DNA from: a virus
IMG/VR virus record: IMGVR_UViG_3300035698_015115
Length of the DNA stretch: 16,857 nt
Reading direction: 5' to 3' (one strand)
A program made the translations under genes and the position numbers. Positions within the stretch are counted from its first letter, which is position 1. Each line of letters begins with the position of its first letter. Below are positions 550 through 3,556 of this stretch, piece after piece. The notes beneath the pieces were generated by a model. It saw only the letters and a program-made list of their open reading frames with translations, ran no database searches and was not told the origin of the DNA.

Positions 550-2589
550 ATGAAAGATCTTGAAAAGAAAATTCAACGACTTCTCAAGGCCAGCCATTTA
601 TATTACAAGGATGGCTCAAGTCCATTATCAGATTCAGAGTTTGATAAATGGGACGGAGAAGTTAAAGCTTATCTTGAGGAACATCAATCCGATCACCCGT
701 ATCTTCGAAGGGTCGGCGGATCAATTGATAATAACTCACCTTGGGATAAAGTCAAGCACCGCCGTCCACTTGGTAGTTTAAGTAAGGCTCAGGTATTTGA
801 TGAATATCAGGATTGGAGTAAAAAGCACGGATACCCAGTAATTATTCAAGAAAAGCTTGATGGGATATCAATTGATTTAGAATATCGCGACGGGCATTTG
901 GTTGCAGCAATTACTCGCGGCGTTGATGGCATCGGGGAAAACATCTACGAGAATGTCATTAAGATGGGCGGGGCTCCGCCTACTATTAATATTCTTGGCA
1001 TTGTTAATATTCGTGGTGAGATTCTTCTATATCATTCTAAATTTGAAAGCATCAATGATAAGTTAGATGAACATGATCGTTTTAAAAATTCCCGGAATGC
1101 TGCTGCTGGTATGTCCAAGAAACAGGATGGTCCATATACTCATAGTTTGAATATTCAGGTTTATGATATTTTAAATATGGATGAAATTGGGTTTACGACT
1201 GAAATTGAAGCTCTTGATTTTCTTAAAGAAAACGGCTTTGAGACTGTTGCATATGATATCTGTAATACTGAGGTAGAACTCAAAGCCTGGTATGATCATT
1301 ACGTTGAATCTAAACGGGATAGCCTTAACTGGGATATTGACGGTGCAGTTATTAAAACTGATATTTGGATTGATCCAAAAAATGATTGGGATCATCCTAA
1401 GAATAAGATCGCATGGAAGTTTCCACATCAATACGGACAGACGGTTTGTATTGATATTGAGGAATCCTGTAGCGGTGGTCGTATCACGCCTGTAGCCATC
1501 CTTAAACCTCTTGATCTTTGTGGTGTAACTATACAACGCGCCTCATTGGCAAACTGGCCTCTAGCCATTGAATTAGGGATCGGAAAAGGGGCTGAGGTTG
1601 AAATCTCCAGACGAAACGATGTTATTCCTCATGTTGAGTCGGTTTTAGTTAAACCTAAATCAGTTGTTGAACTGCCATCCGAATGTCCAACATGTGGAGC
1701 CGATACAGGCTGGGAACAAAATACCAAAGGTGAAGATTCGGTTTATCTAATCTGCTTAAATCCAGATTGTTCAAGTAAACTTGAAAAGGCGATTTCTAAA
1801 TGGCTGGCTGCTCATAATTGTAAAGGTGTTGGCCCTGAAACAATTAAGCTGCTTGTTGATGAAGGGTTTGTAACCAATCTTATTGATTTTATGTACCTGC
1901 CATATACCGAAGGCAAACAAGAATCATTGCGAGTTTGTGATGGCATGGGCATCAGCAAATTGCAGATCCTAATTAAACAAATTGAGAAGACTGCCAAAAC
2001 AACGATTGTACAATTTATGCATGGTCTCAATTTTGAAGGTATTGGGAGAAGCCGAATTGAAGCTGCTATTGACCATATGTCTAAATCATATGATAAGATT
2101 ACAATCCAGTCCTTTATTGATTTTATCCTATCCCCTGATTTTATCGGAGTTGATAAATTCGGTGATGGATTTATTGAAAAGTTCCGTGGTCAAATTGAAG
2201 ATCGTCGAGCATTGATTGATTGTATGATGACTTTAATTATAATCAAGGATGCAGAAATGGTTGCTAAAAAGACATCCATTTTTGTTGATAAAGTATTCTG
2301 TTTTACTGGGTCTTTTGAAACAATGAAACGGAAAGAAGCAGAAGCTTTTGTAAAAGCTAATGGCGGAGCTATCGGTAGCGCAAATAAAAAGCTATCGTTC
2401 TTGGTATCTAATGATCCCAATAGTTCCTCGAGTAAAACAAAGAAGGCCAATGATCTTGGGATTCCTATTATATCGGAATCTGAGTTTATGAAAATGGCCG
2501 GACTTGATATGCCGAAAGTGGAAGAATCTGAGCCTGTTATTGTTGAAGAACAAGATAAGGATATCTTGACAGACATTAATCTGCTCTAA
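550..2589 (+). CDS. ligA: NAD+-dependent DNA ligase (LigA-type)
   Basis: 679 aa. N-terminal Ia-like domain (HLYYKDGSSPLSDSEFDKW...HPYL). Adenylation motif KLDGISIDLEY (KxDG). RGVDGIGENIYENV nucleotidyltransferase motif. Cys4 zinc finger ECPTCGADTG...CLNPDC. HhH region. C-terminal BRCT domain (VFCFTGSFETMKRKEAEAFVKANGG...LGIPIISESEF). RBS AGGAA 7 nt upstream. Confidence 0.9.
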   Translation: MKDLEKKIQRLLKASHLYYKDGSSPLSDSEFDKWDGEVKAYLEEHQSDHPYLRRVGGSIDNNSPWDKVKHRRPLGSLSKAQVFDEYQDWSKKHGYPVIIQEKLDGISIDLEYRDGHLVAAITRGVDGIGENIYENVIKMGGAPPTINILGIVNIRGEILLYHSKFESINDKLDEHDRFKNSRNAAAGMSKKQDGPYTHSLNIQVYDILNMDEIGFTTEIEALDFLKENGFETVAYDICNTEVELKAWYDHYVESKRDSLNWDIDGAVIKTDIWIDPKNDWDHPKNKIAWKFPHQYGQTVCIDIEESCSGGRITPVAILKPLDLCGVTIQRASLANWPLAIELGIGKGAEVEISRRNDVIPHVESVLVKPKSVVELPSECPTCGADTGWEQNTKGEDSVYLICLNPDCSSKLEKAISKWLAAHNCKGVGPETIKLLVDEGFVTNLIDFMYLPYTEGKQESLRVCDGMGISKLQILIKQIEKTAKTTIVQFMHGLNFEGIGRSRIEAAIDHMSKSYDKITIQSFIDFILSPDFIGVDKFGDGFIEKFRGQIEDRRALIDCMMTLIIIKDAEMVAKKTSIFVDKVFCFTGSFETMKRKEAEAFVKANGGAIGSANKKLSFLVSNDPNSSSSKTKKANDLGIPIISESEFMKMAGLDMPKVEESEPVIVEEQDKDILTDINLL

Positions 2590-2607
2590 ATTAAAGGATT
2601 GGGTTGG

Positions 2608-3132
2608 GTGAAAGTAATTAATTTGTTAGCTGGGCCAGGTGCTGGGAAGTCTACTAATGCCGCAGGCATATTCCATTTGTTAAAGAGCCGTGGGTATTCG
2701 GCTGAGTATGTACAGGAATATGCTAAGGACTTGGTGTGGTCAAAACGTTTTTGGGAAATGAAGAATCAGATTCATGTAACATCAACTCAATACCATCGTA
2801 TGTGGTTACTGAAAGATCAAGTTGATTACCTGATAACTGATTCGCCATTGTTGTTAGGTATTATGTATGTTCCACCTGTTGATTACTTCCCATCATTTCC
2901 AGATTTAATTAAAGAATTATTTGAAGACTTTGAAAATATTAACTTTCTGTTAAAACGGCCAGATATTGAGTATATTGAAGAGGGGCGTTGTCAAGATTTA
3001 ACTCGAGCCCAAAAATTAGATCGGAACATTGAAGAACTACTCAATTTGTTTGAATATCCATACGAAACAATACAATGCTGCAAAACATCAGCCCAATTAA
3101 TAACTAACAAAATTATCCAACAGGAGACATAA
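2608..3132 (+). CDS. P-loop kinase, AAA_28 / NadR ribosylnicotinamide-kinase-like family
   Basis: Walker A GPGAGKST is followed by EYVQEYAKDLVW and a DSP Walker-B-like element, an arrangement reminiscent of the NadR RNK domain (AAA_28). The GTG at 2608 has AAGGA 9 nt upstream. The ORF track starts at TTG 2599. Confidence 0.65.
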   Translation: MKVINLLAGPGAGKSTNAAGIFHLLKSRGYSAEYVQEYAKDLVWSKRFWEMKNQIHVTSTQYHRMWLLKDQVDYLITDSPLLLGIMYVPPVDYFPSFPDLIKELFEDFENINFLLKRPDIEYIEEGRCQDLTRAQKLDRNIEELLNLFEYPYETIQCCKTSAQLITNKIIQQET

Positions 3133-3133
3133 T

Positions 3134-3556
3134 ATGTCAGAAGAAACCAAAAGCCTGTATATCGGTGAGCACTATATGTTAGAAGAAACTGCCAGCCTTT
3201 ATATTAGCGGACCTATGTCGGGCTATGTTCAATTGAATGTTCCAACGTTTATGATGGCCGAGGAATACCTCAAGAAAAACTGCCCAGATATTAATATCAT
3301 TAATCCAGCTCGTCTCCGTCATTTCAAGAACTGGCGTCGTTGTCTTATTCGTGATGTTAAGGCAATGTTTGAGGCTGGCATCGATACAATTATATTGCTT
3401 CCTGGTTGGAAATCTTCCGCTGGTGCAAATATTGAAGCATTCATTGCAAAGGCAATTTATGGTGCCAGGATTATTGAAATGACCTTCTCGTTTGAAGGTG
3501 AAGTGCATCTTGAAGATATTACAGATGAGATAGATCTACAAATTATTCAGAAGTAG
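3134..3556 (+). CDS. DUF4406 protein (nucleoside 2-deoxyribosyltransferase-like fold)
   Basis: N-terminal LYISGPMSGY...NVPTF..AEEYL.......INPARL matches the YIAGPMTG...NPA signature of DUF4406 / NDT-like proteins. Strong RBS AGGAGA 6 nt upstream. It starts 1 nt after the previous stop. Confidence 0.7.
   Translation: MSEETKSLYIGEHYMLEETASLYISGPMSGYVQLNVPTFMMAEEYLKKNCPDINIINPARLRHFKNWRRCLIRDVKAMFEAGIDTIILLPGWKSSAGANIEAFIAKAIYGARIIEMTFSFEGEVHLEDITDEIDLQIIQK

Follow-up and report, generated by a model that had tools for sequence, protein, structure and literature searches.

Among the described NAD+ reconstitution pathways (NARPs), NARP1 combines Adps with Namat, and NARP2 combines nicotinamide phosphoribosyltransferase (NAMPT) with nicotinamide mononucleotide adenylyltransferase (NMNAT) (bioRxiv 10.1101/2024.02.11.579819). 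NARP3 pairs a PnuC-like transporter of nicotinamide riboside (NR) with a bifunctional NadR-like enzyme that is both NMNAT and ribosylnicotinamide kinase (RNK), the products of Bas30_87/86 (PMC13464706, 2026). The stretch of DNA considered here, IMG/VR record IMGVR_UViG_3300035698_015115 (16,857 nt, called the window below), carries at 550-3556 three closely spaced genes encoding a LigA-type NAD+-dependent DNA ligase, a stand-alone P-loop kinase (open reading frame 2, ORF2) and a DUF4406 protein (ORF3). The original prediction took this trio as a candidate module of NAD+ salvage, acting as a counter-defense against immunity that depletes NAD+. It also observed that the set matches neither NARP1 nor NARP2, which is right, and the set is equally unlike the later-published NARP3 (PMC13464706). 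The proposed module itself fares less well. We think it probable that the three are co-transcribed, functionally independent accessory genes, serving the replication and the nucleotide pool of an uncultivated and probably large phage, and that they do not make up a dedicated pathway.

Physically, the three genes hang together. The window looks like phage DNA (every credible gene is on the + strand, and G+C is about 38%), and a megablast search against 50,697 phage records found no near-identical relative of the region. All three ORFs lie on the + strand where they were first placed, including the GTG start of the kinase gene at 2608; a mechanical ORF list begins this gene at TTG 2599, and since all of 38 homologues open with MKVINL, GTG 2608 is taken as the start. 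The gaps within the trio are, as had been claimed, 18 nt (2590-2607) and 1 nt (3133). The promoter postulated ahead of ligA is more than a chance resemblance: the motif TTTACA-N16/17-TATATT occurs five times in the window (at 503, 3558, 8592, 11568 and 13320) against 0.12 expected, each time on the + strand and within an intergenic gap. Its extended consensus is GGTTTACA-N14-C[AC]TTATATTAA, also written GGTTTACA...CATTATATTAA. The five copies split the window into transcription units. Between the promoters at 503 and 3558 the only terminator-like site is one weak intragenic hairpin. Flanked by these two promoters, the trio looks like a single transcription unit and is probably co-transcribed from the phage promoter at its head.

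What the trio lacks is conservation. Two surveys bear on this, one of 80 viral loci carrying a gene of the ORF2 family, with neighbors recorded within 6 kb, and one of 80 metagenomic loci carrying DUF4406. In none of the 80 viral loci does DUF4406 or LigA occur within 6 kb of the ORF2-family gene; reciprocally, the kinase is absent from all 80 DUF4406 loci, and LigA occurs in one of them, about 5 kb off. L083, which holds the relative nearest to ORF3 among those with usable flanks, is instructive. There, the C-terminus of a LigA aligns with that of the window to the last residue (52% identity), and its stop codon overlaps the DUF4406 start (ATGA), with no kinase between; the DUF4406 protein is 45% identical to ORF3 and is followed by a gene resembling that of the major vault protein (MVP) and then by a further gene, which is the order of the window minus the kinase. 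In another relative (L082), DUF4406 (55% identity) is followed by a radical SAM gene. Six loci with four LigA relatives (44-47% identity) have only the ligase in common with the window and continue with other downstream genes. The LigA-DUF4406 pairing recurs in one related contig only, L083. The trio is a lineage-specific juxtaposition, not a conserved module. The kinase gene would have entered a pre-existing LigA-DUF4406 junction in the lineage of the window, or else it may have been lost from L083.

The junction between kinase and ORF3 has a peculiarity of its own. ORF3 opens with two tandem copies of a 42-nt sequence that have diverged, the first agreeing with the second at 26 of the 42 positions and at 23 of the first 30; no other place in the window matches better than 17 of 30. 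Tandem Repeats Finder gave no score, and the identities were counted directly. The nearest ORF3 homologues align only from residue 17-22. Given the duplication, the true start of ORF3 could be ATG 3176 rather than 3134. Lying exactly at the kinase junction, the duplication is possibly a recombination scar.

Enzymes of the LigA type use up NAD+ and release nicotinamide mononucleotide (NMN). That the first gene encodes such a ligase, as predicted, is borne out by its parts. Pfam recognizes the adenylation domain (DNA_ligase_aden, 1e-37), the OB fold (1e-13) and the BRCT domain (1e-13); the active-site motif K102-L-D-G (KxDG) and a CPTC zinc-finger motif are both found, as is a helix-hairpin-helix region; and the protein matches phrog_3869 at 2.8e-127. 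The match to the Nlig-Ia domain is weak (E 3e-4, under the cut-off), and by eye its residues read Y-Y...D-S-E-F-D against Y-H...D-A-E-Y-D in E. coli. Adenylation domain with KxDG, OB fold, zinc finger and BRCT, with Ia weak, together make the domain set of an NAD+-dependent ligase. LigA is full length, though it falls under the NCBIfam equivalog cut-offs (TIGR00575, 352.8 against 444.45; NF005932, 328.7 against 369), which points to a divergent phage clade. Its nearest relatives are phage or metagenome ligases at 44-52% identity; a look-up of the exact protein found no record, and single-protein scans of viral contigs with LigA, ORF3 or the guanylate kinase of the window gave no matches. Judging by the conserved domains and motifs, LigA would seal nicks in the phage DNA with NAD+ drawn from the host. 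According to PMC9503650, phage ligases of this kind are confined to viruses above ~68 kb, so that its presence hints at a genome of medium or large size.

ORF2 belongs to a family of 454 homologues (E <=1e-3), stand-alone proteins of about 172 aa present in 89 phage records, chiefly jumbo phages and Lak megaphages. The kinase had been called NadR/RNK-like, and as a statement of ancestry this is right, because the profile-profile comparisons agree. ORF2 passes the gathering cut-off of AAA_28 (E 3.4e-8, 34.3 bits against 27), aligns by profile with residues 231-390 of E. coli NadR (87.8% probability) and, with hhalign, matches five aligned RNK domains (four from phages) at 96.0% (E 3.9e-9). The hidden Markov model (HMM) of the family also picks up NadR-like proteins directly (L218, E 1.2e-6). 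ORF2 and NadR RNK domains have in common Walker A, the Asp of Walker B, a LID with Gly-Arg and, following strand 2, the motif E-Y-[AG]-[KR]-D. Set against the reference RNK motifs (G-x-E-S-x-G-K-[ST], E-Y-G-R, D-T-[DN] and W-x-x-D-G-x-R), ORF2 keeps Walker A and E-Y-A-K, replaces D-T-[DN] by T-D-S-P and has a LID of the form Y-x-x-x-G-R, without Trp or Asp. The motifs conserved within the family are GxPGxGKST, E37-Y-A-K40-D, TDSP, R117 and G126-R127, and the invariant residues are G13-K14-S15, E33, E37, A39-K40, D78, R117 and G126-R127. An AlphaFold model built from the family alignment reaches pLDDT 94.2 and pTM 0.89; the kinase domain alone spans ORF2 end to end, with no fused NMNAT domain.

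In the PDB, HMMER with the ORF2-family profile did not reach the NadR chains; apart from top rows that are spurious sums over designed-PPR repeats, it gave the deoxynucleoside kinase 2jaq (E 0.0026). Single-sequence PDB searches with ORF2 and with ORF3 gave chance matches only, and in PADLOC neither protein matches a defense system. As far as sequence can tell, ORF2 comes from the same ancestral stock as the RNK domain of NadR and is a remote homologue of RNK, not of thymidylate kinase (Tmk). Its putative substrate is most likely a nucleoside or nucleoside monophosphate, on which it would act as a small-molecule kinase in the salvage of nucleotide precursors.

The neighborhoods of the ORF2 family vary strongly among the 80 loci. 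The gene lies in a T4-like replication module in one contig (L001), in GAP32 between the genes for dCMP deaminase and NrdD, near FolE/QueE and a gene annotated as Pol I in Phosso, and beside a tRNA array in Caulobacter phage CcrSC; in 4 of the 80 loci a neighbor looks by eye, with no library scan, like the tRNA-His guanylyltransferase Thg1. The one neighbor specific to the family is a PF00156 phosphoribosyltransferase, a divergent type I enzyme of the xanthine/guanine-like kind, found near the kinase in 13 of the 80 loci (L016, L017, L020, L025, L043, L046, L048, L049, L054, L056, L064, L073 and L078); the 137 control loci with NadR or guanylate kinase have none. Kinase and phosphoribosyltransferase may constitute an undescribed base-salvage pair of phages.

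ORF3 had been described as a DUF4406 protein resembling nucleoside 2-deoxyribosyltransferase (NDT). The family assignment stands (PF14359, E 2.1e-15, 57.4 bits against a gathering cut-off of 22), and so does the NDT/N-glycosidase fold; a match to the NDT family proper, PF05014, was not found. Exhaustive HMMER search gave 2751 relatives of ORF3, a word-indexed homologue search none, and by tblastn 361 phage records have DUF4406; among them are N15 (gp57), PY54, many actinophages and N4-like roseophages. The residues Y23, G26, F39, P58, S95, G97 and E101 are invariant in the family, and D74 and W92 nearly so; ORF3 has them all. Its predicted model has a pLDDT of 89.8.

Searched against the PDB, the ORF3 profile matches NDTs marginally, and likewise the CMP N-glycosidase MilB (E 0.03). 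In these alignments E101 aligns with the catalytic Glu of the NDTs 7m5h and 2a0k, and S95 aligns with a Ser of MilB where both NDTs have Asp. Throughout DUF4406, the Asp of the NDT motif D-x-G-x-x-x-E is an invariant Ser. In NDTs that Asp, ahead of the catalytic Glu, contacts a free sugar hydroxyl, and the equivalent change from Asp to Ser in DNPH1/Rcl frees room for a 5'-phosphate. ORF3 thus has S-x-G-x-x-x-E on an NDT fold, the sequence hallmark of the DNPH1/MilB type. Also, among 36 longer DUF4406 proteins, four carry fused dATP/dGTP diphosphohydrolase domains and one a cytidylate-kinase-like domain. Because of the motif and the diphosphohydrolase fusions in some relatives, ORF3 is most likely a (deoxy)nucleoside-5'-monophosphate N-glycosidase; it would cut the N-glycosidic bond of its substrate as DNPH1 and MilB do, and so clear or remodel the nucleotide pool. 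Elsewhere, DUF4406 genes neighbor those for DNA methyltransferases, DNA polymerase A and primase, in replication or modification modules. No fusion to an ORF2-family kinase was found among 150 DUF4406 representatives. The notion that DUF6378, another partner in DUF4406 fusions, is MazG-like was dropped; PHROGs label that part 'phosphofructokinase', and it is not used as evidence.

Is ORF2 perhaps what its homologues are called? It matches phrog_2107, 'thymidylate kinase', at E 8e-12, and many jumbo-phage homologues bear that label in RefSeq and GenBank (e.g., NC_019401.1 GAP32_136, NC_048048.2 gp139, PV764938.1). As a thymidylate or other dNMP kinase, ORF2 would complete phage dNTP synthesis together with the guanylate kinase of the window (10524-11066), and ORF3 would act on canonical deoxynucleotides. 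The place of the GAP32 homologue between dCMP deaminase and NrdD is consistent with this, as is the PDB profile search that found 2jaq and no NadR. The labels, however, are transferred annotation, not experiment. Comparison with E. coli Tmk by hhalign gives 9.6% over 29 columns, P-loop only; no PF02223 (Pfam) or NCBIfam Tmk model matches ORF2; and the Tmk motif D-R-[YH] is absent from the family, with T-D-S-P in its place. On the strength of these comparisons the label 'thymidylate kinase' on the ORF2 family (RefSeq, GenBank, PHROG 2107) is unsupported, and we regard the dNMP-kinase reading as unlikely. The adjacency of kinase and ligase suggests another role, in which ORF2 would be a polynucleotide 5'-kinase readying 5'-OH ends for LigA (compare T4 Pnkp and ligase), possibly against nuclease immunity. 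Some homologues are called Kti12 by the Joint Genome Institute and some match PF08433; the tRNA array of CcrSC, the Thg1-looking neighbors and an RlaP RNA-repair-type nucleotidyltransferase in the window point the same way. Yet a ligase lies near none of the 80 ORF2-family members, polynucleotide kinases score far lower in structural comparison with ORF2 than NadR and NMP/nucleoside kinases do, and LigA requires no separate kinase to seal nicks in replication. A pair devoted to end repair is extremely doubtful.

The NAD+ salvage originally proposed asks more of the trio. By its N-ribosyl-transfer chemistry ORF3 would make NR from nicotinamide and a nucleoside, or else it would recycle the NMN that LigA gives off; ORF2 would convert NR to NMN, and an NMNAT of the host or encoded at a distance in the phage would complete NAD+; the phage ligase would then stay supplied while immunity depletes NAD+. 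The best structural and profile matches of ORF2 are indeed NadR RNK domains, reached also by the family HMM, LigA does consume NAD+ and release NMN, and an Apyc1-like anti-defense candidate in the window makes counter-defense genes plausible there. Also, a Nuc_deoxyri_tr2 gene follows NadR in one contig (L210), and the same family occurs near ORF2-family kinases in 5 of 80 loci. The apparent enrichment of NDT genes was dropped as support, however: NDT-superfamily genes lie near RNK-type kinases in 5/80 and 4/80 loci and near guanylate kinase in 2/57 control loci, immediately adjacent in one of the two, and these indistinguishable frequencies argue for a general clustering of nucleotide-metabolism genes, not a specific RNK-NDT pairing. 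Domains of NMNAT, PnuC (PF04973), NAMPT (PF04095, NAMPT_N), PRPS-like/Adps and Namat occur in no ORF of the window, and in the PnuC search the positive controls (L249, CcrSC, Kaldavass and UTK0010) were clearly positive. The trio is not conserved, its nearest relative lacks the kinase, and kinase and DUF4406 co-occur in 0 of 80 loci either way. Of the phages with NadR-like genes (770 records), at least two, Erwinia phage Kaldavass and Caulobacter phage CcrSC, carry a PnuC-NadR pair and a separate ORF2-family gene ~150-195 kb away; since phages with complete NARP3-type pairs still hold an ORF2-family gene elsewhere, the family is not just a NadR that has split and kept its RNK half. (The kinase search and the NadR search each count 15 Prevotella-phage records; those with the kinase are Lak megaphages, those with NadR not necessarily the same.) The phosphoribosyltransferase specific to the family resembles the type I purine kind, not the type II nicotinamide/nicotinate kind. 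In the LID, W-x-x-D-G-x-R of NadR is reduced to Y-x-x-x-G-R. The NR-site residues of Bas30_86, obtained by AlphaFold 3 modelling and docking and supported by mutants, with E230 needed for NARP3 function (PMC13464706), fit ORF2 poorly, and the ORF2-family consensus has no conserved residue at the E230 position, although this comparison was given little weight either way. NAD+ salvage by the trio is, on balance, distinctly improbable.

A more general form of the idea is a route independent of phosphoribosyl pyrophosphate (PRPP), in which an NDT-fold enzyme (DUF4406, DUF1937 or Nuc_deoxyri_tr2) would turn nicotinamide and a nucleoside into NR, an RNK-type kinase would turn NR into NMN, and a host or phage NMNAT would turn NMN into NAD+, all beside an NAD+-consuming ligase, sustaining replication under NAD-depleting immunity. 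The NadR gene of CcrSC and CcrC3 has a 4-nt overlap with a gene for DUF1937, the NDT-fold sister family nearest DUF4406, and the DUF1937 protein of these phages also matches DUF4406 at 26.5 bits. DUF1937 is joined to NARP3-like PnuC-NadR in Bertelyvirus and, in the order NAMPT ... DUF1937-PnuC-NadR, in an unrelated viral contig (Table 1). A text search of the NARP3 paper (PMC13464706) found no mention of a deoxyribosyltransferase; the presence of NDT-fold genes within some PnuC-NadR clusters is a useful by-product of this analysis. Were the route real, the Bertelyvirus and L249 clusters would be its fuller versions; we consider it very unlikely.

Several observations nonetheless weigh against three independent genes. 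Among characterized kinases, a bona fide NR kinase domain is the one nearest to ORF2, and since ORF2 keeps the E-Y-[AG]-[KR] of NadR RNK domains, NR kinase activity may hold. The presence of DUF1937 inside PnuC-NadR clusters of two independent lineages means that an NDT-fold enzyme may serve NR/NMN metabolism. The window covers just 16.9 kb, and the rest of the genome could hold NMNAT or PnuC. The LigA-DUF4406 adjacency persists at just 45-52% protein identity and could reflect selection rather than plain synteny. As for ORF3, the commonest fusion partner of DUF4406 (9 of 36) is DUF6378, a family without assigned function, and a literature search found no functional paper on DUF4406.

Other genes of the window are listed in Table 1 with the features discussed above; a DUF932 gene is present as well. 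Directly after the trio, behind its own promoter, comes the MVP-like gene, whose product matches the Major Vault Protein Shoulder (1e-26) and Vault_3 (7e-11), has an acidic C-terminal tail and has no PHROG match. A homologue of a vault protein is unusual for a phage; it is kept at the same position in L083 (1391-3883, 830 aa). The radical SAM gene that follows adjoins the DUF4406 or the MVP-like gene in relatives (L082, 508-1194). A strong hairpin of 11 bp (9 G-C) followed by a T-run, at 6205-6230, overlies its first ATG and probably acts as terminator for the MVP gene, in which case the radical SAM start may be ATG 6250. Two small neighboring genes encode N-terminal paralogues (MKMRQGFVSNSSSCSFV / MKIRNGFVSNSSSASFV) with only a weak match to phrog_7397, and the N-terminus of the PAP2-family phosphatase resembles a signal peptide by eye. 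The metallo-beta-lactamase-fold protein is a candidate counter-defense protein that would degrade cyclic nucleotides. The accessory genes suggest a large phage with broad handling of nucleotides and RNA.

Table 1. Features of the window and related gene clusters in other viral sequences
Sequence	Feature	Position	Strand	Basis or remark
Window	Promoter-like site upstream of ligA	503..530	+	TTTACA-16 nt-TATATT, one of five motif copies
Window	LigA-type NAD+-dependent DNA ligase, 679 aa	550..2589	+	Pfam, PHROG, motifs
Window	Stand-alone P-loop kinase ORF2, 174 aa	2608..3132	+	AAA_28; remote homologue of NadR RNK domain
Window	DUF4406 protein ORF3, 140 aa (126 aa if start 3176)	3134..3556	+	DUF4406; NDT-superfamily fold
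Window	Diverged 42-nt tandem duplication at ORF3 5' end (MSEETKSLYIGEHY / MLEETASLYISGPM)	3134..3217	+	Direct counting
Window	Promoter motif copy heading the next unit (MVP-like gene at 3625); downstream end of trio	3558..3585	+	
Window	MVP-like protein, 853 aa	3625..6186	+	Major Vault Protein Shoulder, Vault_3
Window	Radical SAM/SPASM protein	6217..7293	+	phrog_7293, 1e-84; weak viperin-like matches
Window	Small gene, N-terminal paralogue of the next	7800..8132	+	
Window	Small gene, N-terminal paralogue of the preceding	8135..8575	+	
Window	Guanylate kinase	10524..11066	+	Passes TIGR03263 cut-off
Window	Metallophosphoesterase	11628..12173	+	phrog_547
Window	PAP2-family phosphatase	12562..13317	+	
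Window	Metallo-beta-lactamase-fold protein	13519..14382	+	Anti-Pycsar Apyc1, 65.3 bits against cut-off 50
Window	RlaP RNA-repair-type nucleotidyltransferase	15557..16675	+	
L172 (Bertelyvirus)	NARP3-like PnuC-NadR joined to DUF1937 (CcrSC gp341-gp339)	18773..20831		
L170 (Bertelyvirus)	NARP3-like PnuC-NadR joined to DUF1937	2327..4385		
L249 (unrelated viral contig)	NAMPT ... DUF1937-PnuC-NadR	26..5002		

If the trio is, as we think probable, a set of independent genes, then the locus contributes a further divergent LigA from a phage and one more member to each of two large, uncharacterized phage families, and little else changes. The families themselves may be of wider use. The unsupported label on the ORF2 family is widespread in jumbo-phage records, and the family is better regarded as an RNK-like kinase with a partner resembling purine phosphoribosyltransferase. 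DUF4406, with thousands of members, bears the signature of a nucleotide-monophosphate N-glycosidase and is tractable for biochemistry. If it were true that ORF2 phosphorylates NR, the kinase would define phage NAD+ salvage in a minimal and split form.

The likeness of each gene to described systems goes part of the way. ORF3 resembles the N-glycosidases DNPH1/Rcl and MilB/BlsM in its motif and fold, but the sequence similarity is marginal, and DUF4406 is a separate Pfam family with an N-terminal motif of its own, Y-I-S-G-P-M-x-G. With the NDTs of PF05014, including the phage NDTs implicated in 2-aminoadenine genomes (bioRxiv 10.1101/2025.10.22.683976), it shares the fold, the position of the catalytic Glu and a predicted role in the nucleotide pool of phages; it differs in having Ser where NDTs have Asp, and the window has no PurZ, DatZ or MazZ gene. 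The ligases considered under NAD+ utilization in jumbo phages (PMC9503650; PMC11662467) are, like that of the window, LigA-type enzymes encoded by phages, but these surveys tie LigA genome-wide to NadV, NadM or NadR, not to a stand-alone RNK-like kinase or DUF4406. From the RNK domains of NadR (E. coli 8X7F and L. lactis 6GYE, matched through AAA_28), ORF2 is set apart by an identity of 10-12%, by its Walker B and LID as noted above, and by never being fused to NMNAT. NARP1 and NARP2 have only the NAD+ theme in common with the trio, as none of their four enzyme families occurs in the window. NARP3, like the trio, is encoded by phages as a tight operon, and its kinase domain is homologous to ORF2 (by hhalign, 96% to the RNK set, which includes that of Epseptimavirus UTK0010, numbered like Bas30_86). 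The window, in contrast, has neither a PnuC nor an NMNAT domain, ORF2 is a stand-alone protein of 174 aa, ~12% identical to RNK domains, and phages with NARP3-type pairs have the ORF2 family as an extra, unlinked gene.

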